In this document: in pieces, positions 596 through 47,821 of the stretch
Numbering within the stretch: position 1 is the stretch's first letter
Layout: each line of letters starts with the position of its first letter
IMG/VR virus record: IMGVR_UViG_3300046314_000711
DNA from: a virus
Direction: 5' to 3' (one strand)
Length of the DNA stretch: 64,000 nucleotides
Position numbers and translations under genes: made by a program
Notes under the pieces: model-generated
The model's database searches: none
The model's input: only the letters and a program-made list of their open reading frames with translations
Told to the model about the DNA's origin: nothing

Positions 596-741
596 GCCCT
601 GATAGCAAAGAGGATAATGCACTCGCCTTTTCTGAGAGGATACAGACCTCTCTCCACAGGAGATTCTCACGAGTCTCCTGTCCAGGAGGATAACTCCAAA
701 AGGTAAGCGAGAGACCGTCCGTTCGAATCGGACTCAGGGCA
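596..741 (+). tRNA. tRNA-Thr(GGU)-like with 73-nt structured insert in the anticodon loop
   Basis: GCCCTGA/TCAGGGC acceptor, CTCGC-CT-[629-701]-GGT-AA-GCGAG, T-arm GTCCG-TTCGAAT-CGGAC. Confidence 0.8.
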
Positions 742-752
742 CACAAAATTTA

Positions 753-825
753 GCCACCTTAGCTCATCTGGTAGAGTACTGGTTTTGTAATCCAGAGGTG
801 GCCCGTTCGAGCCGGGCAGGTGGCA
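753..825 (+). tRNA. tRNA-Thr(UGU)
   Basis: GCCACCT/AGGTGGC, loop TTTGTAA, T-arm GCCCG-TTCGAGC-CGGGC; no encoded CCA. Confidence 0.9.
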
Positions 826-834
826 CATCACACT

Positions 835-908
835 AGATCCTTAGTTTAAAAGAAGAACTCCATCCTTACACGGTGGTTGCGGCGGGGCGGTACCGTCAGG
901 ATCTACCA
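835..908 (+). tRNA. tRNA-Val(UAC), non-canonical T-loop
   Basis: AGATCCT/AGGATCT, loop CTTACAC, T-loop GGCGGTA, ACCA. Confidence 0.85.
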
Positions 909-915
909 AATTCAA

Positions 916-989
916 GCTCAGTTATTTCAGTGGTAGAATAATTCTTTGGTAAGGAATAGACGGGAGTCCGATTCTCCCACAGAGCACCA
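916..989 (+). tRNA. tRNA-Thr(GGU)
   Basis: GCTCAGT/ACAGAGC, loop TTGGTAA, ACCA. Confidence 0.85.
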
Positions 990-998
990 CACATTTAC

Positions 999-1075
999 AC
1001 GACTGTATCATAACTGGATAATGACCAGCATTGCGAGTGCTGAGTATGGAGGTTCAAATCCTCTCGGTCGTACCA
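999..1075 (+). tRNA. tRNA-Arg(GCG)
   Basis: ACGACTG/CGGTCGT, CAGCA-TTGCGAG-TGCTG, GGTTCAAATCC, ACCA. Confidence 0.88.
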
Positions 1076-1106
1076 ATAAATAAACACACGCAAATTTACA
1101 GAATAT

Positions 1107-25344: not shown

Positions 25345-25360
25345 CAAAGAAAATTAATAT

Positions 25361-28498: not shown

Positions 28499-28526
28499 AT
28501 ACTTAATATTCGTACAACTGTTTTAT

Positions 28527-29861: not shown

Positions 29862-30060
29862 TGCTAACTTATCCTGAACTTGCTGCACTAGGCTTTTGTC
29901 CAGTGAAGAACTACGGGTGGATGAAAGCTTTCCCTCGGGGCTTCCGTCTTCCGCTATCCTGCCCAGCAGATCTATACAAAAGGCTCCCGCTGCAGATCCA
30001 GATTTTCTACGACTCTCCTATCGTTGATGGTAAGCGAGCATTAAAACGCCAACTAACCTG

Positions 30061-30830: not shown

Positions 30831-31174
30831 CTAAAGTTACGAAACAGTAGGATTAGTAGTGTCCATCTGATAATGAGTGGCAAATGGTTCGAAGTGCACC
30901 ACCCGCGCAGTAATTGCCAGGGGAAGTGAATACGGGAAGCCATACGGGAAGTGTAAGTCAGTCCAGATACTTGTAAATGCAGGAGGTCTAAAGACCTGAG
31001 CGACCGCAGCAATGTGGGAGAGATACTGGGACCGTTTGAAGCCTTTAGTGTAATAACACATTCGTAACTAATAGATTTTGTTCTTTAATAATTTACCGAG
31101 TGATATTCCTCTACATCGACTTCACAGTCCAATGTCGGGAGACAGCTGGTGGTTTAACCGCCCGGTTGGAGGAG

Positions 31175-31408
31175 TCATATTCAAATATCGAGTAAGCGAG
31201 GAGTGCAACCCAACTGAAGACGGCCACTGCATAGCCGAGCCGGACGCGGTATTTGAATATGATTATCTATGCGACGATAGTGACTAGGGCGCTTCGGGGT
31301 CTTCGACAATAGCATAGAATCATATTCAAATATCGAGTAAGCGAGGAGTGCAACCCAACTGAAGACGGCCACTGCATAGCCGAGCCGGACGCGGTATTTG
31401 AATATGAT
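31175..31408 (+). repeat. 89-nt direct repeat (31175-31263 = 31320-31408); the spacer unit recurs near 32060-32141
   Basis: Identical sequence blocks read directly. Confidence 0.9.
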
Positions 31409-32260
31409 AAAGGTGAATGGGTTAGGTATGTCACTGCCATAAGAACGCGGCATGCTGAGTTGGTTCAATTCCAACAACTTTTGTTCAATATGAATCCATG
31501 TGACAATAGCGCGCAACGATAGCATGGAATCATATCAAAGGATAATCGCAGGTAATGGCAAGTTGGTAGGCCATCCAGTTAATTCTGGCGCTGTAGTCGG
31601 AGGTTCGAATCCTTCTTATTCTTTGATATGATCGATGAGTGTTCGAGTAGCCGTGATGTTACTCACAGGGCAAGTAATCATCGTATGACATCTCGGAAAG
31701 ACGGGCTTCATATTTAAGTACTCCTTATAGGATCGTGCATTGGTAGTTCAAGCAGGGGAAGTTTGTAGTACTTAAATATGGTAAGTCGGTTGTTTGTGGG
31801 TCATAGAGAATTGCAGTAAGTTGGTTTAGCGACCTTCTGAAGATTCTCAACCGGGGCTGCTACTCCAAAGGTAGATACTGGGACTCGGAATCTCAGATAC
31901 AAACAACAATTCATAGCAAAGGATGTTGCAACATTCTAGCGAGGTCGCAGGCAGTAATACAGCCCCTTCCGTTCGATTCGGAGTTATGGATGACTTGGCA
32001 TATTCAAATATCGTAGGTGATGATAGTACGCTGGTTACGGTGAACTTCCCTGATCTGAACGGTATTTGAATATGATTATCTATGCGACGATAGTGACTAG
32101 GGCGCTTCGGGGTCTTCGACAATAGCATAGAATCATATTCATCCACAAGTCTCTTGCAACGGGGATTACAACAGGGGAATTAACCCTAAACGTGTTGCAG
32201 CGTTGACCTCTGGTAAGGAGGTATAGCTTGAATTAACAGGGTGGATGAATATGATACTTT

Positions 32261-32343
32261 GGAGAAGGAAAGCTGATGGCTTCAGCACCGAGTCTGTAAA
32301 ACTCGTCCTTCGGGGAGAGGGTCGGAACCTCACTTCTCCACCA
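32261..32343 (+). tRNA. tRNA-Tyr(GUA), atypical
   Basis: GGAGAAG/CTTCTCC, CGAGT-CTGTAAA-ACTCG, T-loop GTCGGAA, ACCA. Confidence 0.75.
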
Positions 32344-32544
32344 AGTTATGACGCAACGTGAACAGCAAAGTTCTTAATGTCATGTGCAATGGCGATAGTA
32401 GAGACTATCCAACGGGTGGTGAGTACGCTCCACATCATGTATTACTAGAAATAGTTTTCACATGTAGTAAAAGTTATGTTATAATTACTACATGTGAAAT
32501 TGGTCTAATTAACCAAAATTACAATCGAGAGTAATTAACTCGAT

Positions 32545-32674
32545 GACCCTTGCATAGTTTATTCGGCAAAACGTAAGAAATGTTGGTTCGATTCCAACCT
32601 ATGAACTCTGTTCGTAGTCGTCTAATGGCTAAGACGCAGGAGAGGGTGGTTCGAAGCCACCTGCAAATAGGGTC
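32545..32674 (+). ncRNA. Nested double-tRNA-like RNA
   Basis: Outer D- and T-arms surround an inner T-arm, closed acceptor-like hairpin and D-arm. Confidence 0.7.
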
Positions 32675-32784
32675 GCAAATTTGTCAGTAAAGAGAGTAAT
32701 TCTGAGTTCTGCAGGACTTGCATTAGGTAGTGATACCCGCGCCGCGATGCTGGCGGATAGAATTACTCTCTTTAGTGATTGATT

Positions 32785-32879
32785 ACAAATTAAAGTGTAT
32801 TTTATAGGTTCGATTCCTAAAGGGCGACGGTCGATAATTTCAAAGTTACTCTAAGTGGTTTAAGTACACTTTAATTTGT
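32785..32879 (+). ncRNA. Y-RNA-like (permuted tRNA) element
   Basis: 16-bp terminal stem enclosing T-arm TAGG-TTCGATT-CCTA and then D-loop-like TAAGTGGTTTAAG. Confidence 0.55.
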
Positions 32880-33188
32880 TAGTCAGTAGGTAGGCTTAGG
32901 AGCAGCCACCCTTTAATAAGTGAGACGAAGGCACGTTGAAACATTGTAATCTGGTGTAGGGCAGCAATCCAGATGAAAGCACAATAGGATTTTTGGTAAT
33001 GTTAGATAACAAACTCAAAAGGTTTGCTGACCCAAAAATCACAGTACGGTAACTTCGCTAGTTACTAAAGCAATGGGATAGCTTCCCTGAGTGCGAGTTT
33101 CGCGTGAGCCACTTGGTTAAGTACAGAGGCACCCCAGAAATGGTAAGGCTGACGTTCTCTTTGGCGTAATAGCAAGCTAACTAACAAA
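32875..33188 (+). ncRNA. RNA containing a 23S rRNA H43/H44 (L11-binding) mimic
   Basis: GGTAGGCTTAGGAGCAGCCACCCTTTAA (32889-32916) and GCGTAATAGC (33164-33173) inside a closing stem. Confidence 0.75.
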
Positions 33189-33858
33189 AATATGATAAAT
33201 AGTCTATTCTAAATATGGGTACTCAAAATATCCGTTCTTAGAGGGTGCAAATCCCTAGATACCTCGGGTTACCGACTGTTGAAGCGGAGTGCTAGGTAAA
33301 AACAGGGTAGACTTATCATATTCAAGTTTTATTTTGTATGGCTCGCAAAATTCGAGACTCCCAGCAGATAGAACTTGAATATGATAATGTTCGAAAGTTA
33401 TCATAACGGAAGATGAGCAAACTCGAGTAAAACTCATCAAGGCACACTTTGGTGAAGTTTAAACGACTTCCAATGCTGAACCACTATACCACTGACTGGA
33501 GGATATCCGCGCCGGAGTCGTCCTTCGGTTGTATAGTTGAATACATTGAAAGAATTGGTCAAGCCCAGTCAAGCCCAGTCAAGTTGTAGTTTATTGAAGA
33601 ACACCAATGTATTCAACTATGCTATAAATTGCGGGGATGAAAATGGAAATGTCGTTCGCCATTATAGAAAACACCTCTGCCTAAGCTGTAAATAGATGGT
33701 CTGGACCCCATCGGCATGCTTTGAGTGTCCACTGATAAATAAGGTTTTGCTGGTAAGAATACGTCGTAAAAGTGATTTTACAGAATTTAGAAATTTATTC
33801 TGGTTGTCAATAAAAATCTCTATCCTCCAAAGCAGGGCCAGCAAATTTATAATTTAAC

Positions 33859-33991
33859 GCGGTTGATGGCTAACTAAATTATTTCAACTCCGGATGAGAA
33901 GTAACGAGGTATCTTAGCTGTTAATAGTCTAACTTGTGATTGAATGTACAATAAATCACGAGTCGGGGTGCAAATCCTCTCAGCCGTACCA
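33859..33991 (+). ncRNA. Enlarged tRNA-like RNA ending ACCA
   Basis: GCGGTTG/CAGCCGT acceptor, GGGG-TGCAAAT-CCTC T-arm, expanded D and anticodon regions. Confidence 0.5.
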
Positions 33992-34213
33992 ATATTCCCC
34001 CTATAGCCTGACGCAAGGGAGCCAAGAGCATGATGCAGTCGCGCTGCACGCCTCAGAGCATGAGAATGATGTTCCTTTCCGGTGCAAGCAGTCCGGTCCA
34101 ATTTTGCGATGCAGACGCGCAGCCTCTCCATTTCACGGAACAAAAGCTCGCAGGGTAGTTAGATAGTTCTGCACCGTTGGGAAAAGACCCCTTAGGCCCA
34201 ACACCAGATAAAT

Positions 34214-34316
34214 GCGCTTGTAATTCAGTGGTTAGAAGGTCACCCAGCTATGATGGCACGATACGCCGTAAAAGCACTGGCTCTGTTGGACGTGGGTTCG
34301 AATCCCACCAAGCGCG
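34214..34316 (+). tRNA. tRNA-like RNA with extended anticodon arm (identity unclear)
   Basis: GCGCTTG/CAAGCGC, canonical D and T arms, about 50-nt anticodon region. Confidence 0.65.
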
Positions 34317-34596
34317 CTATATTGAAACACACTGGCGATTCTCGTATGAGGGTCGTTATTTGGTGCACAAGTGTAACAGTGTGTTTCAATATGGTATAGT
34401 GTAATGAGAATGCACGGGAGCGCCACATAAATCTCTTTGACTAGAGTGGTGGAACAAGTTTCAAGTACGGTAAAACCCCGTAAGCCATATTTAAACGTAC
34501 TGATGAGCTGATGCAATTTCAGCGAAACTGTTGGGGAGCCATTACAATGATTTGCTCTTGTAAAAATATCCAACAGTATACGTAGAGGATAAGCGA

Positions 34597-35106
34597 ATGA
34601 AGTTGTCTGACATTTTATGCAGTGTCCACATCGTGGAGGCGCTAACGACCCGAGTTCCTATCACATGGGAACAATCTACCCCAGCTACTATTACTGGCAC
34701 TGGTGTCATTGATGGTGTAATAATAACACTAACGATATCGTCCCTAGTGTACAGTGGGTACAATGGTTGTAATCTAGCATTTGCTACTGATAAAGATGGT
34801 GAACCTGTTGAGGTGTTCCGAAACGAATTTGGGCAAAGTGCATCTAAAATTATTGGTGCTGTTGTTAATGGATTCAATGAGAAATTGACTGATTTTAACT
34901 TCGACTTTTTGTGTCTTGCAGCCAAAGACAACGTTGATAAGCGAGCTTCGCTTTATCTAATGATAGCTGAACGATTTGCACGTAGTCGGCAGATGCATGC
35001 TAGAACTGTTGCATACGGAGAAAACAAAGTTGTTATTATGATTAACCACGACCTTCCTCTCGATTTGATTAAAAAACTAGAACAACAAGGTAGTAGTGTT
35101 GATTAA
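34597..35106 (+). CDS. Hypothetical protein, paralog family A
   Basis: GAGGA RBS; KIIGAVVN...FDF...AKD..R..LY...ERFAR shared with 45156 and 49064. Confidence 0.75.
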   Translation: MKLSDILCSVHIVEALTTRVPITWEQSTPATITGTGVIDGVIITLTISSLVYSGYNGCNLAFATDKDGEPVEVFRNEFGQSASKIIGAVVNGFNEKLTDFNFDFLCLAAKDNVDKRASLYLMIAERFARSRQMHARTVAYGENKVVIMINHDLPLDLIKKLEQQGSSVD

Positions 35107-35166
35107 ATATGGTGTGCCACTGGCAGTGATGAGTGAATTAAAAAATAATCTCAAGTAACGCATTTA

Positions 35167-35241
35167 GCATTCGAGGTGTTAATAGATACATTCTTCGCTT
35201 CCACCGAAGAGTTCCCGGCGCGATACCGGGCGAATGCTCCA
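35167..35241 (+). tRNA. tRNA-Gly(UCC)
   Basis: GCATTCG/CGAATGC, CTTCG-CTTCCAC-CGAAG, U73-CCA, T-loop CGCGATA. Confidence 0.82.
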
Positions 35242-35674
35242 GAATTAGTCGGAGTAGCTAACCGAAAAGTAAACAGTAGATGCGCCATGGTTGCTCGGCG
35301 ATCTTTGCGGTGATCCACCGCGTCAGCCCGCAAGGTTGAGAAAAACTGCAGTAAAAGTCTGAAAGTAGAGCAATCAGAATTTGAGCACAAAGTACAAGTG
35401 TAATAGAGTAAATATTATCATCAGTACTTTGTGCAGTGATGGTAAATATTACGTCTGGTGATGAAGACGATGGCTTCCCACCTACGGATGTAATGCCATT
35501 CGAGTGTGATACCTTTAACCCTCTGGATCCGTTTGCAGAAGCGAAGCGTGGGACAGTGGTGCAGGAGTTAGATATGGACGAAGAGTCGTTTTGGCGACTC
35601 TTCCAGTAAAAATTGGGCAAGTGGTGCAGTTACGACAGTGTGTAACTGGTTCTACCACCAATACCCGATACTTT

Positions 35675-35757
35675 GGGCCGCTGACATATGCAAATTGGCA
35701 CAGCTACTCGGCTTAGAACCGAGGTTTTTCCCGGTTCGAGTCCGGGGCGGCCCACCA
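35675..35757 (+). tRNA. tRNA-Leu(UAG), short variable arm
   Basis: GGGCCGC/GCGGCCC, CTCGG-CTTAGAA-CCGAG, ACCA. Confidence 0.85.
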
Positions 35758-35794
35758 TTAATCTTAAAATAAGACAGGTAATCACATCTTAGTT

Positions 35795-36583
35795 ATGCAG
35801 AATAGAATATCAACAGCTACAAAGCAACAAATTATCGATATGTTCACTCAAGGGATGTCTAGAATGGATATTTCGAACCAACTGGGTTTGGAGTGGAAAC
35901 AGGTCGATTATTGGTGTCGCAAACAAGCTCGAGTGTCAGAATTAGCAACCGAAGTTGACTTTTCACCTAAATTGTTGCAAGCAGTTGGTGAGTACTACGC
36001 ATATTTACTTGGAGCATATCTTGGTGATGGGTATATCAACAAAGAGCGCTATACCTGGAAAATTAGATTTTCATGTGACGTGAGGTACCCAGGCGTTATA
36101 AACGCACTTACGCGAGCACTAGTGCAATTGGGGTTTGTAAACGCAGCATGCTGTAAAACTGGTAGCGATAATTGTGTTGAAGTGTACGCATACGGAAAAC
36201 ATATCGCAGCAATGTTCCCTCAGGTTGGTCCAGGACGAAAACACACAAGACGGATCAACCTCGACCATTGGCAACAACAGATTGTTACAAAGTATCCCCA
36301 ATATTTTGTAAGGGGGTTGTATCATACTGATGGGTGTAGATATATTCACACGGACAAAAAAGGCGATAAAGTATACCAATCGGTTAAATACGCATTCGTC
36401 AACAGATCGAAGGACATTATTGATCTATTTTGTGGAAGCTGTGATCAATTAGGAATCGGATACAGAGTCACAACTAAAAAGTTCATTGCTCTGACCACTA
36501 ATGAAGTTGCAATAGGTTGGGTGATTCAACTCGGCCGCAAAAACGAAGTACTAAAGCTGGAGAAGTTTTTAGGGCCAAAGTAA
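35795..36583 (+). CDS. Free-standing HTH + LAGLIDADG homing endonuclease
   Basis: N-terminal HTH, YLLGAYLGDG and VRGLYHTDG motifs. Confidence 0.85.
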   Translation: MQNRISTATKQQIIDMFTQGMSRMDISNQLGLEWKQVDYWCRKQARVSELATEVDFSPKLLQAVGEYYAYLLGAYLGDGYINKERYTWKIRFSCDVRYPGVINALTRALVQLGFVNAACCKTGSDNCVEVYAYGKHIAAMFPQVGPGRKHTRRINLDHWQQQIVTKYPQYFVRGLYHTDGCRYIHTDKKGDKVYQSVKYAFVNRSKDIIDLFCGSCDQLGIGYRVTTKKFIALTTNEVAIGWVIQLGRKNEVLKLEKFLGPK

Positions 36584-36655
36584 TAAATAACATTAAACCA
36601 AAACAATGGCGCATTTCTAGTTGGGCGTCTATACAAATTTAACTAGCACAAATTT

Positions 36656-36735
36656 GGGGCACGGGGCTGCTTGGGGTGGCCACTACACTTGCACTGTAGA
36701 TATTCAGCTCGGTTCAAATCCGAGGTGCTCCACCA
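36656..36735 (+). tRNA. tRNA-Ala(UGC)
   Basis: GGGGCAC/GTGCTCC (G3:U70), CTACA-CTTGCAC-TGTAG, ACCA. Confidence 0.9.
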
Positions 36736-37452
36736 AATTTGAAGTAGGACACAGCACTGTATGGCTACAATGTCAACATACAGGCTTCAAATCACTATTC
36801 GTTAGTCGAATCACCCAATGGAGGCACATGGTGTAAAACTTACCCTCCAATTTTTTAAAGATAGTCATATCATATTAGCGGCACGCTGGAAGGACAGCGT
36901 AGATGCAATACAGAAACAAGCATCACAATAGTGGGGGCGTTCACACACCAGTTAATACAGCCTCGATGTCCAAGAGATTAATTACCTCGCTTCGGACTGC
37001 AAAACCACCAGATTGTGCTGAGAATGCATTCAGAGGTAAGTAGGCGAGCACTGTGGACGCACATCTCGACGGAGGGCACTGCTAGGGTGTGCTGACTGGG
37101 AATCAAGCCCCGGACGCTAATATGATATGATTTATGACCCTCCCATTAGGGATGGTAAGCGAGCTCTCAGTGACTCTGCTAGGTGAAGTAGTTGGTGACC
37201 AAACAGACCGCCTTGGTCGGTGGTAATGTGGAATCCTAAACGCTTAAAAACTCCTGACAATAGGCCTAACCGGCCATACGATAAGGAACACTAGTAACGC
37301 TCTCGTTTCCCATAGCAGTTCACTCTGCAAAGGGTCGCCAAATAATCCATTCTCGGTTTAAGGTGAAGCACGCCCGAGCACCAACTTGCAAAAGTTGTAT
37401 AAAACCCAATTACAAGTGACACGACTGGTGATGGAAGCCAGTCACAAATTTT

Positions 37453-37647
37453 CCCGAGGTAGTTCAGTGGATGGTTGGTAATCAGTGGTAAGGAACGCCC
37501 ACTACGGTTATCTTCCCGCAGATTGTGGAGTAGCATTGGTTAGTAATCAGCACGCGGCTGACGAATCTGATGTGGCAAGTCTCTCTGTGTAGAACGCTCG
37601 TTCTCTAAACGAGAGGTCGGTGGTTCGAATCCACCCCTTTGGGACCA
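37453..37647 (+). tRNA. tRNA with about 120-nt D-loop insert; anticodon UCU (Arg) or shifted CUA
   Basis: CCCGAGG-TA-GTTC...GAAC, CTCGT-TCTCTAA-ACGAG, canonical T-arm, ACCA. Confidence 0.65.
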
Positions 37648-38079
37648 TATAAAACACATTCCGGGCTGTCTCCAATGGCGTACGGATCTCCGCAAGGCTG
37701 TACGGGACTGTAGCAATGCAGTCGAGGGGTGTGAATGTGTTTGTAATAACGGGCAACGTGAAGGCCCTGCTGATAGGTTTAAATGGCCTTGATCGAAGGT
37801 ACGCCGGACTACCACAACTCTTGACTGTTATCAGACTAAACAGTCACCATATAAAAATACTATTGACGGGTAGACCCTGCATACACCGCAGGGCATCTAT
37901 TCGGTTCCCTGGCAGGGGCGAACCTTGTGTTGTGCCAGCAGCGCAAGCAGTATTGATAGTGTTTTTATATGGTGATAGTGGGTCGAGAGTTTGTAACTTG
38001 ATTAAGTTCGGGGCGATCTTGATTTATAGTCCGAGCGTAAAACTGTGGGATCTTTAGTCCCGCAGATGTAAGCGAGCAA

Positions 38080-38460
38080 TTATCCTTGTTCAGCTATATA
38101 TTTAGCTATTGTTTCGGTCGAGGCATCCCCAGTAGAACAAACAAAATAACCAGATGACTAAAATATACAATTCTTCCAAAAATGTTTTCTCAGTTCGGAG
38201 CTGTGTAAGAACCAAACTTTTGCAGTAGTCGTTTGTTTCAATAATCTGACAATTTGTGAAACTGACACATTTGGCGAGTAATCAACCAGTAAATGGATAT
38301 GATCTTTGTCCACTTCCATTACTTGTATTTTGAAATCGGCTGTTTGATTTGTTAGTATTGTATCTTTGATGGTCTGTATTAGTTGTGGCTTAGACAGAAG
38401 TTTCTTTCTATACTTGACGCAGAACACAATATGGCTTTTGAGTGTAGCTTTTCTCCCCAT
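38080..38460 (-). pseudogene. tnpA: Y1 HUH transposase with in-frame TAG at the conserved Trp (F*SSGYF)
   Basis: HIVFCVKYR, DHIHLL; after the TAG at 38158-38160 the frame continues SSGYFVCSTG...KYIAEQG. Confidence 0.85.
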
Positions 38461-38529
38461 TTTGATGGTATATTTTCAATTTTGTATAAATATATTTATG
38501 TCAATCAAATCAACTGCATAAATAATAGT

Positions 38530-39804
38530 ATGAAACAGCTGCTCGCTTACAAATATAGGATTTACCCAACAGAAGACCAACAAATCCTTCTGAGTAAAAC
38601 CTTTGGCTGTAAACGGGTAATATTCAACCATTACCTAAATGTGCAACAAACAAATTTCAAGAACAAAGAAAAGCACCTGAGCAACTATGACATCAATAGA
38701 GACATTACTAAACTGAAGGATGAGAAGGACTGGTTACGGGAAGTAGATTCTATTGCATTGCAGATGGCAGCAGAAGACCTATCGTTGGCATATGACAATT
38801 TCTTCAAATCAACTACTGGTAAGAGAAAGGGTCCGAAGATAGCGGCTCCTAAGTTCAAAACCAAGAATTCTCGGCAGTCGTATAGAACTCGTGGGGTTCG
38901 TATCAATGAAAATGGTTCTTTACAAATACCAAAACTAAAAGCAGTAGAAGCAGTCATCCATAGAGAAATTCCAGGTGATTCGACAATCAAATCAACAACC
39001 ATATCAAAGAATACGGATGGAAGATATTACGCATCGATTTTAGTTGAAACAGAAGTAGCATTAAAGCCAACGACTGGTAGAGAAGTTGGTTGCGATGTGG
39101 GTCTAAAAGATTTACTCATCACTTCAGATGGGATAAAATTCAAAAGACCGAATGATTTGCTAAACATTGTGAAAACAAAACAATTGTTGAAGGCAAAACA
39201 AAAGCAGTTTGCAAGAACTGATAAAGGCAGTGAAAATCATGAATCAATTCGACTCCAAGTAGCAAGATTGTACTCAAAGATCACAAGACAACGAAATGAA
39301 TATTATCATCTAGTATCAAACTACTTAGTCGATAATTATGATTCCATCTACGTTGAAGATTTGTCGAGTAAGAATATGCTACAAAACAGGAAGTTGAGTA
39401 GAGCAATTCACGAGGCAGCATGGGCCACACTGACTGGAATGATTTCATACAAATCAAATCAGGCAGGTAGGACATATCATCGAATTAGTAGATGGTATCC
39501 GAGCAGTAAGACTTGTAGTTCATGCAATTACAAACTTGAAAAGCTCGATCTTGGAACCCGAGAATGGACTTGTCCTAACTGTGGAGTCTTTCACGATCGG
39601 GATCTAAATGCAGCAAAGAATATACTTCGTGTTGGTCAGATTGACTGCTACGAAGAGGTAATAGAGTCGCAAGCAACAGGCGATTTGGAATTAAAAATTC
39701 CATTGGCCCTACAGAAAATGACTAGTAAAATCGAGAGATCTGGCATATGCTTGTCAGTTGGTTATGGGAGTGGGCAAGCTGCACGATCTTTAGTCGTGCA
39801 GTAG
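38530..39804 (+). CDS. tnpB: RNA-guided endonuclease TnpB
   Basis: AYKYRIYPT, RuvC D/E/D (GCDVG, VEDL, DRD), zinc finger CSSC...CPNC. Confidence 0.93.
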   Translation: MKQLLAYKYRIYPTEDQQILLSKTFGCKRVIFNHYLNVQQTNFKNKEKHLSNYDINRDITKLKDEKDWLREVDSIALQMAAEDLSLAYDNFFKSTTGKRKGPKIAAPKFKTKNSRQSYRTRGVRINENGSLQIPKLKAVEAVIHREIPGDSTIKSTTISKNTDGRYYASILVETEVALKPTTGREVGCDVGLKDLLITSDGIKFKRPNDLLNIVKTKQLLKAKQKQFARTDKGSENHESIRLQVARLYSKITRQRNEYYHLVSNYLVDNYDSIYVEDLSSKNMLQNRKLSRAIHEAAWATLTGMISYKSNQAGRTYHRISRWYPSSKTCSSCNYKLEKLDLGTREWTCPNCGVFHDRDLNAAKNILRVGQIDCYEEVIESQATGDLELKIPLALQKMTSKIERSGICLSVGYGSGQAARSLVVQ

Positions 39805-40033
39805 TTGACAGTGGTTCGAACAAAAGCGGAAGCAGCCAGGCGAACTCATAGAGTTTGGATAGTGTTGGGACGGCAGAAATTCCCACTACCTATTGTCATC
39901 ATATAAAAATGTACTGTCCTACCCAAAGGGTGGCAGACAGTGGTTGGAAGGATCTGCTCGTTATCTATCTGATGGATGCACTCGGGTTGCACCGATGCCA
40001 AAGGACGATGATTGTAGTACATTTTTATATGAT

Positions 40034-40154
40034 TAGTTGGTGATGTAATTGGTAAACATAAGCGGTTAGAGGAATTTATCTTCGAGAAGGACGCCAAAAC
40101 CTTTCCTCGTAAACCGCTGGCAAAGTGTGGGTTCGAGCCCCATCCAACTTTCCA
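40034..40154 (+). tRNA. tRNA with 41-nt anticodon-loop insert (GUA if removed)
   Basis: AGCGG-TT-[40068-40108]-GTA-AA-CCGCT; D and T arms intact; TCCA. Confidence 0.65.
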
Positions 40155-40318
40155 TATAAAAGTTAGTTCCCATTTGGAGGTAGAACACTGCGTAATCCCA
40201 GTATAGCGCATTGGTCGAGCTAACTTTTATATTGTCCATATTTGAGTGTATTGCTATCGCACAAACAGTATTCCGGAAAACGGCCCACAAAGCTTAGCTG
40301 GGTAATACACTCAAATAT

Positions 40319-40432
40319 GGGGAGGTAGCTCAGTTGGCAGAGCAACGTAATCGAATGCAGAGACAGGCCGGCTTTATGGCTCTGTTAGTAGATATGCGCA
40401 TGTCGGTGGATCGTGGCCACCCCTCCCCACCA
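40319..40432 (+). tRNA. tRNA-like RNA with extended anticodon arm
   Basis: GGGGAGG/CCTCCCC, canonical D-arm, about 45-nt structured anticodon loop, ACCA. Confidence 0.65.
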
Positions 40433-40526
40433 TATATAGAATTATGTGGGCCACATCCTGTGGTTCATATGCAAACTGTCTTTAAAATTAATGGTCTTAG
40501 GCAGTGACCAGTACAATGGAAATAAA

Positions 40527-41327
40527 ATGATGTATAACAACAAGTGTGTAGTTGCTGCTAAGGCAAACGGTAAAGTTCTCCGCGAATTTAAAGATACTAT
40601 TTTCGTACCCTTTGGTAGTGAGTATTCACTACTAATCAAAAATCTAAACTCAGTCCGAGCAATTTTTAACATCTATATTGACGGTGATAATGTTGTTCCA
40701 GGTGGACTTGTTCTAGCTGCTGGTCAGGAGATTGATCTCGAACGCAGCATCAAGAACGGAAATCTCAACGAAGGAAATAAGTTTAAATTCATTTCTCGCA
40801 CAAGTGATATCGAGAATCACCGCGGAATAAAGTTAGAAGATGGTATTATTCGGATCGAGTACCAGTTTGAAAAGGTGTATCAACGCCAAGATGGTATCCA
40901 ATGGAATACTGACTTATACGGCTGCCCAATCACATTCGGTAATGCGCAAGTACCGCAAAGTTCTATTGTGCGCGGAATGAGTAATATCAACATTGCTGGA
41001 TCTGCGAATTGTGTTGCAACATTAGATGGTGGTGCATCTGCGCAGAATATGACAATGCTCACTGCAACCGCACAATCCGTGAATGATGTTGGTATTACTG
41101 TACCAGGTGGCAAAAGCGAGCAGAAGTTTGATACAGTGTCTTGGTTCCCAACAGAGATAGAAAAGCACACAATTGTGCTCAAAATACTTGGTGAGACCGC
41201 CGACAACAAACCTATTCCAACTCCCGTGACGGTGAAAAGTAAGCCCAAATGCACAAGCTGTGGTAAGGTGAACAAAGTTGGATCAAAATTCTGCAACAGT
41301 TGTGGCACTGGTTTGGATCTGTTTTAA
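40527..41327 (+). CDS. Hypothetical protein with C-terminal zinc ribbon
   Basis: Beta-rich N-domain; CTSCG...FCNSCG. Confidence 0.75.
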   Translation: MMYNNKCVVAAKANGKVLREFKDTIFVPFGSEYSLLIKNLNSVRAIFNIYIDGDNVVPGGLVLAAGQEIDLERSIKNGNLNEGNKFKFISRTSDIENHRGIKLEDGIIRIEYQFEKVYQRQDGIQWNTDLYGCPITFGNAQVPQSSIVRGMSNINIAGSANCVATLDGGASAQNMTMLTATAQSVNDVGITVPGGKSEQKFDTVSWFPTEIEKHTIVLKILGETADNKPIPTPVTVKSKPKCTSCGKVNKVGSKFCNSCGTGLDLF

Positions 41328-41434
41328 CCATCTCGCATATATAGTAGTATCGAGATCAAGTCTTCCAGAACTTTTTTAATCTGGCTGGACACCGCCAACG
41401 GGGAGTCTGTAAGCTAACAGTTGGAAAGATTTAT

Positions 41435-41508
41435 GCAGGCATGGTGTAAAAGAAACTCATAACTTTGCCAAAGTTAAGTCCCCGGAGCATTACCGGGTGC
41501 CTGCTCCA
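41435..41508 (+). tRNA. tRNA-Gly(GCC)
   Basis: GCAGGCA/TGCCTGC, loop TTGCCAA, TCCA. Confidence 0.85.
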
Positions 41509-41534
41509 ATCACAATAGTATGTGTGTGCATAGA

Positions 41535-41608
41535 CGCGCAGTAGGGAAGTAGCTATCCCACCTGGCTCATAACCACGGAGGTCGCTGGTGCAAATCCAGC
41601 CTGCGCAT
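41535..41608 (+). tRNA. tRNA-Met(CAU), initiator-like, extended acceptor
   Basis: C1:A72 mismatch, loop CTCATAA, GCTGG-TGCAAAT-CCAGC. Confidence 0.75.
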
Positions 41609-41627
41609 CTATGCATACTTACAAAAA

Positions 41628-41733
41628 GGGGTAGGTTCAGCAACCTTAAAATATGGCTGAAGTCAATGGGCTTGCCCAACGATCTCAAACTGGAGTTGTT
41701 GCCCAGTTAAAACAAGCAGCTAACAACTACCCC
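41628..41733 (+). ncRNA. CAGC-motif small RNA candidate (copy 3)
   Basis: GGGGTAG/CTACCCC terminal stem followed by TTCAGCAACC. Confidence 0.5.
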
Positions 41734-41791
41734 GTTGTGTACAAAGTGATAGTGATAGATAGTGGAATAATATGATGCAAGATGGCTGCGC

Positions 41792-41874
41792 TCACCAGTA
41801 GAGGAATTGGTAAACTCACCTGACTGTTAATCAGACGCTTAATTGCACTGTTGGTTCGAAGCCAACCTGGTGAG
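41792..41874 (+). tRNA. tRNA-Asn(GUU) with long variable region
   Basis: TCACCAG/CTGGTGA, loop CTGTTAA, canonical T-arm. Confidence 0.85.
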
Positions 41875-42551
41875 CACAGCTGATTTTGCATCGCGATAGA
41901 ATCCCCCTTAGGACCGTTTGATGTCAACGGTAGGGTGGCGTAGGCTGCTCAGGCGTCCGAGTAGTTGCCGTTAGCAATAGGCGTTATTACACTGCTTAAC
42001 AAGCTGTGGTGATGCTGCGGGATAATGAGCAGACGCTCCGATAAGGCGCCTCCGGATTTGTAACCGGATCATTTTAAAATACTCAAAATGACCGTCAACT
42101 ACTGCACGACCAAAGATCCGGCAGTTTTACGTACACACCCGATAAATATAATAAAAACTCAAACAAAATGACCATCTTTTCTTGGATCACTAAACCGCTG
42201 CGCGACATTGCCGCCTTGCAAACTCAGCACGATCGCATAGCTCGACTAGCACTTGACTTGCAAACGCAGTGCAATGATCGTGATGACTATATTAAACAAC
42301 TGAAAGCTCGTATCGATCACATTGAAGGCGTGATCAGAACTCACACGTTCTAACATCACTCGGTATTGCGGCAACGATGGGTTGAGCACAATACCCCAAT
42401 CCCTTATGATAGACTTAATACTACACCAACAGAGCTAGTAACCGAGACAACTCTGCTAATGACAATAAACTGCTGACAAAGTCGATAAATTCCTTCTCAG
42501 GATTTGCAGTTAGTTGGGTGTGGTACTTTATTAACTACCAATGGAGTTTAC

Positions 42552-43066
42552 ATGACAGAATTTTTCCTAGGCCTTGTAACTGGCTATTTGTTTACGTGGC
42601 CAGCAATCGCTATATTGATCGCATTGGGTATCATGTTCGAATCAGCCTCGAGTCACGCAACAGCAGCTTTCCTTGGTATCGTTGCAGCAGTTAGTGCGTA
42701 TTTTACTTCCAGCTTGATATCCAATCAATGGTGATGTATATTGTGGCGTACTTTGGACTGGGATTTGCGTGGAGCATCTGGCGTTACCGTCGACACATAA
42801 AATCGATCGTCGAGCAATACCGTAACGACGATCGATTTTATGTGCGTAAAGGTGCTGCTGATCGTCTACATCCGCTGGCAATGTTGAGCACATTAACTGC
42901 CTGGGTAATCATCTGGCCATTCAGCATGGTTGAGAACTTGGCTGGTGATGTTATCAACATGATCCGTACTGCTATCTCGACTGTGTTCCGTAGCGTGTAC
43001 AACCGCATCTACGAATCTGCTGTGCGCGACTTGCTGCCAACGCCTGTTGATGGCACTGAAGTATAA
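42552..43066 (+). pseudogene. Membrane protein apparently split by a 1-nt frameshift
   Basis: Adding one T in TATTTTAC (42699-42706) fuses the two hydrophobic ORFs. Confidence 0.5.
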
Positions 43067-43090
43067 TAGTTTGAAAATTGAAAGAAACCC

Positions 43091-43525
43091 ATGAGCCTTA
43101 TTACAGAAATCAAGTCTGCGCAGTTGACTGCTCGTAAGGACCGAAATGGTCCAATGGCATCACTGCTAACTACCCTCATCGGTGAAGCAGAAATGGTCGG
43201 CAAGAATGCTGGCCGTGAAGTGCTTGATGCAGAAGTGGTTGCAACAATCAAAAAGTTTATCAAGAACATTGACGAAACAATCAAAGCACTTGGTGTGGAA
43301 GATGCTCGTGCACAGGCTGCACAAGACGAACGCGTTGTTCTGGAACACTTTCTACCGCGTCAAATGGACGAACAGCAACTGACCGAAGCAGTGACTGCTA
43401 TCAAGGCTGAACTGAATGCTGGACAAAAAGATATGGGCAAAGTGATGGGTCTATTGAAGACACGACACGAAGGCCAGTATGATGGTAAGATGGCTTCTAC
43501 TGTGGTCAAAGCAGTACTCGCCTAA
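43091..43525 (+). CDS. GatB/YqeY domain protein
   Basis: LEHFLPRQM, KDMGKVMG, DGKMAS.VVK. Confidence 0.9.
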   Translation: MSLITEIKSAQLTARKDRNGPMASLLTTLIGEAEMVGKNAGREVLDAEVVATIKKFIKNIDETIKALGVEDARAQAAQDERVVLEHFLPRQMDEQQLTEAVTAIKAELNAGQKDMGKVMGLLKTRHEGQYDGKMASTVVKAVLA

Positions 43526-44217
43526 ATAGAGATACGGAGGTGCGACAGCCCAATAGGTTCCACATTTTGTGGGTCACCACTGTCGCTTTATATGTTGAGT
43601 ACACACTCGGTAACTGGTATAAATAGAGATGGGTGGTTACACCCATACACACATACACAGGAGTTATACCAATGTTTTTACTAGCATATCTAATCGAAAA
43701 AATCAAGAAGTCTTTCAAACCCACCACTTACGGTGAAGAATTGGAAACATTCGTTGTTTCTCACAACCCATCTACATCAGCTGATGTAGAATACTGGATT
43801 ACCCAGTATGATCGTAGACAACAACGTGCCCGTGGTGGTATGTTTAGTTATCGGTAATATTTTTGTCGATACATTTCATACACACATACAGGAGAAATCT
43901 AAAATGGCTACTACATCTAAATCTGCCGGCAAATCCGGCTTTGAAATCCGTCTCGAAGTTCTGCAGATGGCAAAAGAGCTTGTCGAAAAGCAAGCTAAAC
44001 TAACTACTGACTTCGCTACCCAAGCATTCACACTTGCTATTCAATCAAACCAAGCTACTATTAACCAGTGGAAAGAATTTTCTCCCGCTGCTCTTACCGT
44101 AGATGAAGTAATGGCAAAGGCAACTGAGCTATATAAGTTCATTGCCCCAACAACTACAACCAAGTAATATGACCTTTTTTACATCCCACTCGAAGTGTTC
44201 CCGATTGTGTACATTAC

Positions 44218-44589
44218 ATGAAGGAGAACACAATGAGCAGAACTTTCCGAAGAAAGAACTACGAGGCTGAAAACAATACCTCGTGGGATGTGCAAGGCCG
44301 AAAGACAGCTGGGTTTTATACTGAGCGCGTATCCCACTGGGTTGCTAGTGGTCAGTACTTCCATACGTACGAGATCCCGACAAAAGCACAGTTCTACAAA
44401 AAATATACTTGGGCACATGGCGAAAGCAAGTCCGCGAACAGTTGGAGTCCGGGTCATAGCTTTCGTCACCCACGCATGACTCAAAATCGAGCTATCACGC
44501 GACGAGAATTGCATAAATATCGCATGATTCCTGACTATGAACCAATGGTAGAAGCGAATCCTCGCAGCTGTCGTTGGGATTGGAGTTAG
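44218..44589 (+). CDS. Hypothetical basic protein
   Basis: AAGGAG RBS before MSRTFRRK (true start probably 44233). Confidence 0.6.
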   Translation: MKENTMSRTFRRKNYEAENNTSWDVQGRKTAGFYTERVSHWVASGQYFHTYEIPTKAQFYKKYTWAHGESKSANSWSPGHSFRHPRMTQNRAITRRELHKYRMIPDYEPMVEANPRSCRWDWS

Positions 44590-45155
44590 AAAAGGACTAC
44601 AAGATGAGCACAGAGCAGGACAAAGTCAAGCATAGCAAGCGGATCCACAACAAGCAAACGCGTACTCATCGTCAGTGGACGCTATCGAAACAAATATTCA
44701 AAGAAGTGGTAAAAGAGCCACACGTCTATCACAAGAGATCATTCGCAACCTGTGGTAACAGCAATTGCGTAATGTGCATGAATCCACGTCGCGCAACAGG
44801 CGAGCTCACTATTCAAGAACAACGATTGTTTCAAGATCGACTACAGGAGTATGTTGAGCACAAGGACGCTTTATGTGATGATTGATTTATGAGCAGTTCT
44901 GCCCGAATTCCGGTCTGGTAATAGACAGAACTGCAATAGTGGAGTGGACAAAAGAACGGTGCATGTGGAGCGAAGGTACGTAAGCGTTGAAGCATGCACT
45001 TGCTGTAAGGAATGCCTGATTTAACAGGACTCCCTAGTGTCTAAGTTAGGGTTAATAGCCTACTACTAGCGGATGCGTAAGTTCGAAGCCGGAACAGCGG
45101 GCTCAAACCTCCCAGGTAGGTGGAAAGCCTACACAATATTAGGATATTTTTGGCA

Positions 45156-45656
45156 ATGAAAATAACGCAAATATTAGAAAGTTTTCCAGTAATGGAGATG
45201 CTGAATACGAGACTAGATGAACCAGTTGTGTGGGAGCAAGAGCATCAGCAGGATATCTGCAAGTGTTCAATCGATGGTGGAAGCATTAATCTCAAACTGG
45301 TGATATCAGCCATAACATATAAGCAGTTATCAGGATTGCGAGTTGGTTTCTTATTGTGGAACGGTACTGATTATGTTGAACACATTGGAGCTGTATCAAC
45401 GATCAGTTCTGCAAAAGTAATTGGTGCGGTTACAAACGCCCTGCTTAATCGGTTAAATGAGTACGAGTGGGATTTTATTGTAGCAGATGCAAAAGATGCT
45501 GTTCCAATCCGGATGAAGTTATACACTCGCATCGTGGAACGAATCGCTCGGTCAAATAGTTGGCAGTACGGTTCTGGAGTTGTTAACAATATAGGGATTG
45601 CAGTAGTCTCTAAACAGTATAGTTGTCAAGACATAATCGATAACATTCAACATTGA
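45156..45656 (+). CDS. Hypothetical protein, paralog family A
   Basis: KVIGAVTN...WDF...AKD..R.KLY..IVERIAR. Confidence 0.75.
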   Translation: MKITQILESFPVMEMLNTRLDEPVVWEQEHQQDICKCSIDGGSINLKLVISAITYKQLSGLRVGFLLWNGTDYVEHIGAVSTISSAKVIGAVTNALLNRLNEYEWDFIVADAKDAVPIRMKLYTRIVERIARSNSWQYGSGVVNNIGIAVVSKQYSCQDIIDNIQH

Positions 45657-46102
45657 GCACAATCTCATAAACTTGTAAAGTAAGATTTTAAACACTGAAA
45701 CGCACAAAGGTAAAAAATGAAACCAACCAAAACTTTCAAGCTCAGCAAAACGACCAAACGTATGATGTCAACTCTAACCAACGCAGAAGCGCGCAATGAA
45801 TTTAAAAGAATTATGATCCAGGGGCAACTCGCTGCTCAGGTTGTAATCAAAAAAGAAAAAGCAGATAAGTAAACTCTGTTTAACCAGATCCAGGGGTGGA
45901 TCCAGCAACATAAATTAAAATGGACTGATAGTTTGATAATTTCCAGCTTGTCTGGAAACTCGACTAGATATGTGCCTGTCCAGACATGACAGAGATATGG
46001 CAGAGAATGGTAGGCTCTGCATGAAAAAAACAAGCACACTGAAAAGTGTAAAGAATTGCTAAAACAATTTGCATCGACCGCACCACCCCGTTAGTTATTT
46101 TA

Positions 46103-46226
46103 GGGAAGCTTGCAGCCAACTTTATACACTAGACTTTTAATCTAACCCGTAAAAAGGCTTCCCGTTTAATTTTAGGGTTACTTCCAGCCACCATCTTCAT
46201 TTGTACTGAAAATAAAACAGTAACCC
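46103..46226 (+). ncRNA. Two tandem CAGC-motif small RNA candidates with anticodon-like hairpins
   Basis: GGGAAGCT/GGCTTCCC (46103-46163) and GGGTTACT/AGTAACCC (46175-46226), each with CAGCCA after the 5' stem. Confidence 0.65.
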
Positions 46227-46251
46227 GGCTTATATCAAGGAGCACATAGAC

Positions 46252-47685
46252 ATGACAACAGCAACATTTGCACACGCAGTTTTAACTCAACCAACTACAA
46301 CAACCAATGGCATGAAAGCATTCGCTGGCACTGGTAACGCTTGTGTTCAACTTTTCTATGCGATCGGTGCGATGCGTGGTAAAGACGTTATTCCATTGTT
46401 TAAAGCAGCCTATGCAGAAAACATGGAAATTGCACTGCGAATCGCACAATGGAGCCGTGACATTCGTGGTGGAGCAGGAGAGCGTCAAATTTTCAAAGAT
46501 ATTCTTGCTCACTTGGAAATTACGAATCAAGATCAGCAAGTACGAGCACTAATCGATAAGATTCCAGAAATTGGGCGTGCTGATGATATGTTGATCAATT
46601 GGAAGACAGTGGGGGTTCGTAACTATGCATTTACTGTATATGGGGAACAACTTCGCAACGGTAATGGACTATTCTACAAATTCCTACCTCGTGAAAAAAG
46701 CGCAAAGAAGCGTCTCGCAGCAGAACTCCGTTCATTCTTCGGATTGACTCCTCGTCAGTACCGTAAGCTGGCTTCTGCTAATACTACTGTTACCGAAACA
46801 CAGATGTGTGCGAAGGATTGGGATAACATCAACTTTAGCCACGTGCCTTCTGTTGCTGCCTCACGTTACAAAAAAGCATTTAAAAGAAATGCTCCCGTTG
46901 TGTTTACTGAATATGTTGAAAAACTGACCAAAGGCGATCCGTCCGTAAAGGTAAACTCAAGCGCAATCTTCCCGTACACAGTGATCAAAGGCTGGCATTC
47001 TTCTCGCATTGATCCAACGATTCGTGCTCATGTGAATGCACAGTGGGCAGCACTACCAAACTACGTAGGTAATGCGAGTATCTTGCCATTAGTTGATGTA
47101 TCTGGTTCGATGAATTGCCCAGCTGGTGGAGACACTTCAGTGACTTGCCACGATGTTGCACTATCACTCGGTCTGTACCTGTCTGAAAAGAATACTGGTA
47201 AGTTTAAAGATATGTTCCTGACGTTCTCCGAAGATCCTGAACTACTGCACCTAACTGGTGACGTGATGGATCGTTTGGAAACAATGGATCGTAGCAAATG
47301 GGACATGAGCACTGACATTGTCAAGGCACTTGCTAAGATTTTGGAAGTCGCTGTTGCTGGTAACGTACCTCAAGGTGAAATGCCAGAAATCTTGTGTGTG
47401 ATGTCCGACATGCAATTCAATGAGGCAGCAGAGGCAAACGATAGTGCGATGGAAAGCGTGCGAACTCAATATGCTGCAGCCAACTACACATGCCCAAAGT
47501 TGGTGTGGTGGAATCTAAATCACAAAGGTAACGTACCTGTGACAGCCAATGAGCAGGGCGCAGCACTTGTATCGGGGTTTAGCCCAGCGATTGTAGCAAG
47601 CATTCTGAGTGCGGATCCAGATGATTTCACACCATATGCATTAATGATCAAATCCGTCTGTGTACCGCGATATGATGTGAAATAA
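46252..47685 (+). CDS. DUF2828-family protein (helical repeat + vWA; Ro60/TROVE-like architecture)
   Basis: TTNG, RDIRGGAGER, VPSVA, MIDAS DVSGSM, FLTFSEDP, SDMQF, WWNL, VSGFS. Confidence 0.85.
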   Translation: MTTATFAHAVLTQPTTTTNGMKAFAGTGNACVQLFYAIGAMRGKDVIPLFKAAYAENMEIALRIAQWSRDIRGGAGERQIFKDILAHLEITNQDQQVRALIDKIPEIGRADDMLINWKTVGVRNYAFTVYGEQLRNGNGLFYKFLPREKSAKKRLAAELRSFFGLTPRQYRKLASANTTVTETQMCAKDWDNINFSHVPSVAASRYKKAFKRNAPVVFTEYVEKLTKGDPSVKVNSSAIFPYTVIKGWHSSRIDPTIRAHVNAQWAALPNYVGNASILPLVDVSGSMNCPAGGDTSVTCHDVALSLGLYLSEKNTGKFKDMFLTFSEDPELLHLTGDVMDRLETMDRSKWDMSTDIVKALAKILEVAVAGNVPQGEMPEILCVMSDMQFNEAAEANDSAMESVRTQYAAANYTCPKLVWWNLNHKGNVPVTANEQGAALVSGFSPAIVASILSADPDDFTPYALMIKSVCVPRYDVK

Positions 47686-47713
47686 GGTGCTCTAACGTAG
47701 TTTGGAGCATGTT

Positions 47714-47821
47714 GGGACTCTAGCATAATTGGTAGTGCTGGGAACTCTTACGGAGCATCTGCACAAGCGGGTGTTCAAAATAATTCCTAAGGCCTCGGTT
47801 CGAACCCGGGGGGTCCCACCA
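47714..47821 (+). tRNA. tRNA (Ile/Met, CAU if spliced) with 32-nt hairpin insert in the anticodon
   Basis: GGGAA-CT-C-[47748-47779]-AT-AA-TTCCT; intact D, T and acceptor; ACCA. Confidence 0.75.

Follow-up and report, generated by a model that had tools for sequence, protein, structure and literature searches.

Several transfer RNA (tRNA) genes that carry extra folded sequence in the anticodon arm are found in the 64,000-nucleotide (nt) stretch of DNA analysed here (the window), which belongs to the minus strand of the 109,810-base IMG/VR virus record IMGVR_UViG_3300046314_000711 (a 110-kb contig). These interrupted genes are real and occur beyond chance. It is tentatively proposed that they specify tRNA-derived stable RNAs in which the body of a tRNA is kept and a folded module takes the place of a working anticodon. 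The module would lie inside the anticodon in three cases, called genes 1, 2 and 3 below, and would replace the anticodon loop in two others, called 34214 and 40319 after their first positions. Such RNAs would be transcribed together with the tRNA arrays, and the tRNA body would allow trimming by RNase P and 3′ processing enzymes and provide stability, as in the case of T4 RNA C, which is made from the tRNA cluster of T4. The working part would then be the hairpin module that projects from this body, probably as a handle for a protein, for which the Ro60-like protein encoded 28 nt upstream of gene 3 and the tRNA-repair set, represented by the RNA ligase Rnl1, are candidate partners only. The sequencing runs that hold DNA of this record are freshwater metagenomes, and the source is an uncultured, very large T4-like phage of fresh water; since CheckV rates the contig as about 32% complete, the whole genome should be near 340 kb.

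Interrupted tRNA genes and their inserts

With default settings, ARAGORN reports 16 tRNAs in the window, and seven extra, insert-bearing calls were obtained when introns were allowed (-i0,200), at 596-742, 32548-32669, 34214-34317, 37482-37643, 40034-40154, 40319-40432 and 47714-47821. With introns allowed, no insert-bearing call was made in 30 shuffled windows (1.92 Mb) or in the reversed window, and in 169 loci from related phages 9 of 1472 tRNAs were insert-bearing. Three of the seven calls, all on the plus strand of the window, are clean, with the extra sequence placed between the two strands of the anticodon stem: gene 1 (596-742), gene 2 (40034-40154) and gene 3 (47714-47821). Their acceptor, D, anticodon and T stems are fully paired, except for a U-U at 1-72 in gene 2. 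Additionally, 39644-40472 and 39973-40442 recur with 0-1 differences in Logan contigs from other samples, which shows that the genes at 40034 and 40319 are not assembly errors.

Gene 3 is a tRNA(CAU) gene with an encoded CCA and a 32-nt insert at 47748-47779, and it is followed by a terminator-like hairpin. Insert-less tRNA(CAU) orthologues of this gene are present in its two closest relatives (L030:3849-3924 and L090:3668-3755). The tRNA(CAU) of the closest one, L030, whose Ro60-like protein is 78% identical, is 76 nt long and agrees with gene 3 minus its insert at 58 of 76 positions; every one of the 21 stem pairs is present in both genes, six of them through double changes, and the loop CUCAUAA is identical. 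In L090 (Ro60-like protein 77% identical), the tRNA(CAU) lies 7 nt after the Ro60-like gene, which is the position of gene 3, and has the same GGGAC...GUCCC-ACCA ends. Since the orthologues are CAU and a single excision yields CUCAUAA, the insert is placed between C34 and A35, and, judged by this comparison, gene 3 arose from an ordinary tRNA(CAU). It follows that a 33/34 insertion site shared by all three genes, as suggested in the preliminary description, does not hold, and that the Lys(CUU) call made by ARAGORN is wrong. The double changes seem to lie mostly on the L030 branch, as comparison with the tRNA(CAU) of L149 and L021 suggested, and therefore they do not demonstrate selection on gene 3 after the insertion. 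Among closer relatives, the Ro60-like proteins P0001 and P0002 are 90% and 86% identical; a metagenome scan for relatives yielded none above 77%. The bodies of genes 1 and 3, used as scan patterns, led to the L030 record only, and the D arm of gene 2 proved generic in such scans.

Gene 1 is of tRNA-Thr type and carries a 73-nt insert (fold z = -5.2 for the gene). Its cloverleaf is complete, with the acceptor stem GCCCUGA/UCAGGGC and the T arm GUCCG-UUCGAAU-CGGAC. The register of its insert is ambiguous: removal of 629-701 gives the loop CU-GGU-AA, and removal of 630-702 gives CU-UGU-AA, likewise Thr. The nearest normal tRNA among the related loci fetched is the tRNA-Thr(UGU) of L069, which favours the 34/35 register (630-702), although GGU is as possible as UGU for the anticodon despite this match. 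Gene 2, with an insert of 39-41 nt and an encoded CCA, reads Tyr(GUA) without 40068-40108 and Thr(CGU) in the register chosen by ARAGORN. Its body fits neither Tyr nor Thr, given the U1-U72 pair, the short variable loop and the U at position 73; the intact tRNA-Tyr of the phage belongs to class II. Gene 2 is carried unchanged by DNA contigs of other samples, and the Rfam tRNA model gave no match to either gene 1 or gene 2.

The excisions listed in the preliminary description were all reproduced, namely 629-701 to the Thr loop CU-GGU-AA, 40068-40108 to UU-GUA-AA, and 47748-47779 to CU-CAU-AA or 47747-47778 to AAU. However, a perfect loop is a weak test here, with 4-6 of 8 registers giving U33 and a purine at 37, since the 5′ flank starts with YU and the 3′ flank ends with AA. 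Owing to this ambiguity, the anticodon is not fixed by sequence alone and is settled for gene 3 only, through its orthologues. Thus, the candidate insertion sites are 34/35 in gene 3, 33/34 or 34/35 in gene 1, and 32/33 or 33/34 in gene 2.

As regards the inserts themselves, that of gene 1 forms three perfect hairpins closed by U-rich and A-rich ends (z = -4.1), that of gene 3 forms one 10-base-pair (bp) hairpin with three G-U pairs (z = -5.8), and that of gene 2 (40068-40108) has a 6-bp closing stem, GAGGAA/UUCCUC, and is weakly structured otherwise (z = +0.3). Their earlier characterization as hairpins of 32-73 nt is thus correct in size and in the strong structure of the first and third, and overstated for the second, which has only its closing stem. 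Because of its three G-U pairs, the hairpin of gene 3 forms solely in plus-strand RNA, and it is in RNA of the tRNA strand that the inserts are structured. In each insert the two ends pair with each other, which turns the seven nucleotides of the anticodon loop into an internal loop. In all three, CAAAA stands just after the last helix (at 697 in gene 1 and 40095 in gene 2), a recurrence expected by chance about once in 1000 according to a post hoc count based on the window frequency, and GGA occurs 7 times in the inserts against 1.8 expected, also counted post hoc. The inserts share no sequence with each other, and blastn-short searches of the 110-kb contig gave back each insert and no other match. 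Unique sequence, strong structure and, in gene 3, G-U pairs that serve the plus strand only make the inserts look selected rather than mobile.

Other origins or fates of the inserts were tried and rejected. A mobile repeat does not agree with their single-copy state on the contig, and a DNA palindrome, terminator or att site is at odds with the G-U pairs that restrict the gene 3 hairpin to plus-strand RNA. Excision of the RegB type was discarded since GGAG/GGA lie inside the inserts and do not mark both of their boundaries, and RegB was not found on the contig. Removal of a tRNA-shaped insert by RNase P and RNase Z was likewise discarded: no T loop or tRNA-model match was found inside 629-701, 40068-40108 or 47748-47779, and a cut at the hairpin base of gene 3 would not yield CUC|AUAA.

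Remodelled elements and the case for non-decoding RNAs

Two further elements on the plus strand have anticodon arms from which no anticodon can be read. The one at 34214-34317 has about 30-41 extra nt in the anticodon arm, arranged as CAGCUAUGAU, a hairpin and GUAAAAGC, with no clean anticodon loop recoverable, and the cassette that holds it (33846-34339) is absent from some DNA strains. The other, at 40319-40432, has a rod-like hairpin of about 49 nt instead of an anticodon loop; its 5′ half is Ala-like but it has G3-C70, its T loop is non-canonical and its CCA is encoded. The Rfam tRNA model matches them with 45.2 and 35.9 bits, respectively, only by skipping 41 and 44 nt, which agrees with the preliminary description that the anticodon arms of 34214-34316 and 40319-40432 could not be resolved. 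A single contig of the RNA run (spanning 40263-41243) crosses 40319-40432 without a gap.

The distant relative L087 holds a homologue of element 40319 (L087:1903-2016) that agrees with it in the 5′ half and in the anticodon stem (ACGU/AUGU) and not in the payload, which is unrelated, and each of the two lies beside a homologous zinc-ribbon gene (47% amino acid identity). The corresponding proteins, with a C-terminal zinc ribbon (40527-41324 and L087:2504-3205), are encoded directly downstream of insert-bearing tRNA-likes in both phages. For the one at 40527-41324 no family match was found, the protein atlas gave viral hypothetical proteins only, and the structural model has a predicted local distance difference test score (pLDDT) of 41, too low to be of use. 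Oversize tRNA-likes are also found in other related phages, where those of L016/L017/L021, L096 and L100 form a family of 113-121 nt (L016:1154-1270, L096:4502-4619 and L100:7607-7727); with the two of L087 (L087:1903-2016 and L087:2266-2388) the range is 113-123 nt. By eye, from the alignment and folds, the hairpin of this family varies with compensation and is followed by an invariant CAGCA and an A-run, and no convincing anticodon stem can be drawn for it. In L087, the motif UCAGCAAU...AAACAAAA of the tRNA-likes also frames spacers between tRNAs.

In the window, the acceptor stem, D arm, T arm and anticodon stem of the interrupted and remodelled genes are intact, and the CCA is often encoded. 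Moreover, genes 1 and 2 coexist with intact isoacceptors on the same strand. Intact tRNA-Thr(UGU) (753-826) and tRNA-Thr(GGU) (916-989) adjoin gene 1, a tRNA-Thr(CGU) is found at 448-519 (non-canonical, and missed by default ARAGORN), and an intact class II tRNA-Tyr(GUA) of 85 nt lies at 25361-25445 (ARAGORN, 90% threshold). The non-decoding reading is thus favoured because the loops of 34214 and 40319 cannot be rebuilt, the payload varies in L087, and intact isoacceptors coexist with the interrupted genes, and because no splicing signal, enzyme or product was found. It also draws on the oversize family of relatives, the body of gene 2 that suits neither identity, the selected look of the inserts and the precedent of T4 rnaC. 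For the same reasons, of the two options offered by the preliminary description, a non-decoding tRNA mimic fits better than phage tRNA splicing, the latter having found no bulge-helix-bulge (BHB) at the junctions, no Rfam intron, no EndA or RtcB on the contig and no spliced joint in a thinly covered RNA run.

Several observations weigh against a non-decoding role. The seven loop nucleotides all survive around the inserts of genes 1 to 3, with Y32-U33 and A37-A38, and the loop of gene 3 is identical to that of its insert-less orthologues. Intact loop residues are exactly what a spliced tRNA needs, and a recent insertion would also explain them. The self-closed ends, the CAAAA and the richness in GGA suggest a common reader, which could be an endonuclease. 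Gene 3 may also be the third CAU tRNA of the phage, and hence needed; the other CAU tRNAs are an initiator-like one at 41535 and another upstream of the window. As for the candidate protein partner, neither the five elements nor the spacers on either side of the Ro60-like gene contain GNCGAAN(0-1)G, the Ro-binding motif of bacterial Y RNAs, and in relatives an ordinary tRNA follows that gene, so the adjacency of gene 3 may mean nothing.

Splicing, decay and self-splicing as alternatives

It is possible, though doubtful, that the inserts are protein-spliced introns. An endonuclease, supplied by the host or encoded in the unsequenced two-thirds of the phage genome, would cut both strands of the internal loop while the halves stay paired, and Rnl1 would seal them, after healing of the ends if these were a cyclic phosphate and a 5′-OH; the products would be tRNA(CAU), tRNA-Thr and possibly tRNA-Tyr. 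That the phage splices its own tRNAs, with a structure-reading endonuclease other than EndA cutting the hairpins from the anticodon and the T4-type Rnl1 joining the halves, is considered unlikely. The loop remnants do rebuild canonical 7-nt loops, in gene 3 the very loop of the insert-less orthologues, and inserts closed by their own ends, with CAAAA after the last helix in all three, define the internal loop that such an enzyme would read. A T4-type Rnl1 is also encoded, an enzyme not known so far to act other than in repair, which in T4 specializes in sealing breaks in anticodon loops. The preliminary description was right as to this ligase type, with the reservation that it is encoded by two open reading frames (ORFs), 59742-60350 (N-terminal part) and 61188-61781 (C-terminal part), both on the plus strand, around a homing-endonuclease ORF of the NUMOD3 type on the minus strand (60292-61200); this arrangement could be a split gene or an undetected intron. 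Furthermore, inserts with the same pattern of presence and absence in the tRNAs of the Lak megaphages have been called introns (PMC6784885).

The search for splicing signals and enzymes gave a different picture. A BHB was taken as a pair of 3-nt bulges with 4 bp between them and a splice site in each bulge, and a script run with a positive control found none with its bulges at an insert boundary, relaxed BHB-like motifs being present only elsewhere in the RNAs; the junctions thus lack the motifs that the preliminary description had proposed to look for. It had also proposed a search for an endonuclease, and neither EndA (PF01974; archaeal controls were positive) nor RegB, RtcB, Rnl2 or an AAA_33 kinase was found on the 110-kb contig, which represents about 32% of the genome. 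We know of no bacterial or phage enzyme with such a tRNA-splicing activity. The insertion sites differ among genes 1, 2 and 3, genes 1 and 2 duplicate intact isoacceptors, gene 2 lacks Tyr or Thr identity features, and 34214 and 40319 cannot be spliced into a tRNA. Finally, the contigs listed for 28101-48100, from one metatranscriptome run and three DNA runs, included neither a joint that skips an insert nor an allele without one. As the RNA run had a depth of 0 over 39440-40106 and of about 1.7 over 47444-48100, this negative is weak evidence. Splicing is thus kept alive by the intact loop remnants, the features shared by the inserts and the incompleteness of the genome.

A less probable explanation is that these are recently disabled tRNA genes, in which insertions hit redundant copies of an over-supplied array and neutral decay followed. 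The redundancy of genes 1 and 2 with intact isoacceptors agrees with it, as does gene 3 being uninterrupted in its two closest relatives, which makes its insert young or lineage-specific. Most compensatory changes between gene 3 and L030 seem to belong to the L030 branch, and thus give no sign of selection after the insertion; the cassette holding 34214 is present in some strains and absent in others, and further degenerate tRNA-likes occur in the array. However, each case retains all 21 stem pairs and its conserved tertiary nucleotides, and the unusually stable, perfect hairpins, with G-U pairs that work in RNA only, are unlike random junk. At least five cases in one genome, compared with 9 of 1472 tRNAs in relatives, are also hard to reconcile with decay, and so are the inserts unchanged in other samples and the oversize tRNA-likes of relatives, which are conserved with covariation as judged by eye.

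It is very improbable that the inserts are self-splicing or self-cleaving RNAs, such as a miniature ribozyme or a degenerate group I intron. The 34/35 site of gene 3 is the one used by group I introns in bacterial tRNAs, including those of cyanobacteria, and in the 34/35 register the insert of gene 1 follows a U and ends in G. The insert of gene 3, in turn, follows a C and ends in A (C|U...A|A), and therefore the rule of U before and G last fits gene 1 alone, in one register. As the preliminary description had noted, inserts of 32-73 nt are too small for group I or II introns and fall far short of either core; Rfam searches, at gathering score and at E <= 1, returned nothing but tRNA, with no intron or ribozyme family. 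Additionally, a 2014 review placed all phage group I introns then known in protein-coding genes and none in tRNA genes (PMC3984707).

Related systems, the Ro60-like gene and the surrounding tRNA arrays

To our knowledge, protein-spliced tRNA introns are not known from bacteria or their viruses, and the Lak megaphages provide the only published hint to the contrary. Devoto et al. 2019 (PMC6784885; preprint 10.1101/356790) described 'enigmatic introns' in the Lak tRNAs for Phe, Gly, Thr and Tyr and pointed out the lack of earlier reports of introns in phage tRNAs; the inserts, of 93-113 nt, contain a T-arm-like or whole tRNA-like element (Table S6). As in Lak, the genes described here are oversize tRNA genes of a very large phage in which an otherwise complete tRNA is interrupted within its anticodon loop; the genes affected include Thr(UGU) and Tyr(GUA), both candidate readings here, relatives with and without the insert define its boundaries, and no Rfam class matches the inserts. 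In contrast to Lak, the inserts of genes 1 to 3 are 32-73 nt long and are plain hairpin modules without a T loop, that of gene 3 lies at 34/35 and not near 37/38, where tRNAscan placed the Lak inserts, and the phage is a freshwater T4-like one rather than a gut Prevotella phage. The present case differs in its set of short plain-hairpin inserts, one of them placed at 34/35 by its orthologues, alongside fully remodelled tRNA-likes.

A second comparison is offered by the T4 stable RNAs C and D (rnaC and rnaD; species 1 and 2), which are non-decoding and of unexplained function (PMC3014915). When folded, T4 rnaC has a canonical T arm (CCGGG-UUCGAAU-CCCGG) next to its terminal stem, and two long hairpins fill the middle, where the D and anticodon arms would be. 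The elements described here, known from their genes, resemble it in architecture only, being placed within a tRNA array, having a T arm and a terminal stem, and presenting a structured domain for a decoding loop. RNA C-like RNAs as a group lack a formal definition. Unlike rnaC, to which they have no sequence similarity, the elements retain a complete D arm and anticodon stem, and genes 1 to 3 keep all seven loop nucleotides, which makes them interrupted rather than remodelled tRNAs.

Being short, non-catalytic and placed in the anticodon-loop region of tRNAs that are otherwise normal, the inserts also recall archaeal and eukaryal BHB introns, and an Rnl1-family ligase, a candidate here with its split ORFs, could seal as Trl1 does in yeast. 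Unlike those introns, the inserts show no BHB at their junctions, lie at sites other than 37/38 in a bacterial virus, and have no EndA on the contig. With the bacterial group I introns of tRNA-Leu(UAA) and tRNA-fMet they share the interruption of the anticodon itself, whereas those introns are at least 200 nt long and have a conserved catalytic core (P3-P9), which was not detected here.

Three interrupted tRNAs, two anticodon-less tRNA-bodied RNAs, a Ro60-like protein and Rnl1 on one contig make a compact, testable set. Removal of the inserts would amount to a new splicing route and would give phage RNA ligase a new role, and, should the splicing be done by proteins, tRNA supply would hinge on phage or phage-triggered enzymes. 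If the inserts stay, the tRNA body would be a natural scaffold for small structured RNAs in large phages, and the 50-year-old riddle of T4 RNAs C and D would gain relatives. Since standard tRNA finders miss such genes, phage tRNA counts and arguments on codon supply are biased.

The gene directly upstream of gene 3 (46252-47685, plus strand) encodes a Ro60/TROVE and vWA-like protein (Pfam DUF2828 and DUF7788). Its AlphaFold model (pLDDT 71) matched Ro60 structures over the full length in Foldseek (9kop, 9l5y, 2nvo and 1yvr, E = 6e-8 to 2e-5), including a phage Ro60 and Deinococcus Rsr, and phmmer and profile searches against PDB sequences gave no match. Its best matches in cultured phages are in KVP40-type vibriophages (42%). 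In 161 related loci the Ro60-like gene sits within tRNA arrays and is followed by tRNAs of many identities; in about 40% of them a tRNA begins within 400 nt after it. Bacterial Ro60 is known to act with Y RNAs that mimic tRNA and are encoded beside it (Chen et al. 2014, PMC4201824), the YrlA/Yrn1 Y RNAs being encoded on the strand of a Ro60 orthologue and no more than 4 kb from it, phages included. Gene 3 is similar in its position, as it lies 28 nt after a gene of its own strand whose product has the Ro60 fold. However, the ends of a Y RNA make the Ro-binding stem with a closed acceptor end, whereas those of the elements here make an acceptor stem, and no Rfam Y-RNA family matched them. A reading of these elements as Y RNAs was therefore rejected, the motif being absent as well, and the Ro60-like protein may be a partner of the gene 3 RNA only as a candidate.

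The record holds well over 30 genes for tRNAs or tRNA-likes, which share one strand and are clustered as arrays; no relatives of the gene adjoining the first array were found in IMG/VR. The tRNA-Pro, tRNA-Cys and tRNA-Asn genes (25261-25345, 26802-26886 and 41792-41875) are 84-85 nt long with long variable arms or loops, which is unusual for these normally class I tRNAs. Default ARAGORN missed non-canonical tRNA-likes at 323-436, 448-519, 835-908, 1206-1281, 31539-31622, 31910-31990 and 35675-35757; some of these have odd T loops or D arms, the one at 835-908 reads as Val(UAC), and two dubious elements (323-436 and 32548-32669) contain nested T-arm-like hairpins. DNA contigs of other samples skip the stretches 33846-34339, 30338-30534 and 35752-36729 whole, which indicates that the RNA-cassette region is modular and variable among strains. 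A TnpB gene (IS605 OrfB/Cas12f-like; 38383-39804) ends 230 nt upstream of the interrupted tRNA-like at 40034, and a YqeY-like protein (43091-43525), with a GatB C-terminal-type domain and the PHROG family name 'tRNA amidotransferase', adds one more tRNA-related gene to the region. Finally, an ORF at 35795-36583 in the RNA-cassette region, with weak LAGLIDADG and helix-turn-helix matches, could be a free-standing homing endonuclease among the tRNA-likes.

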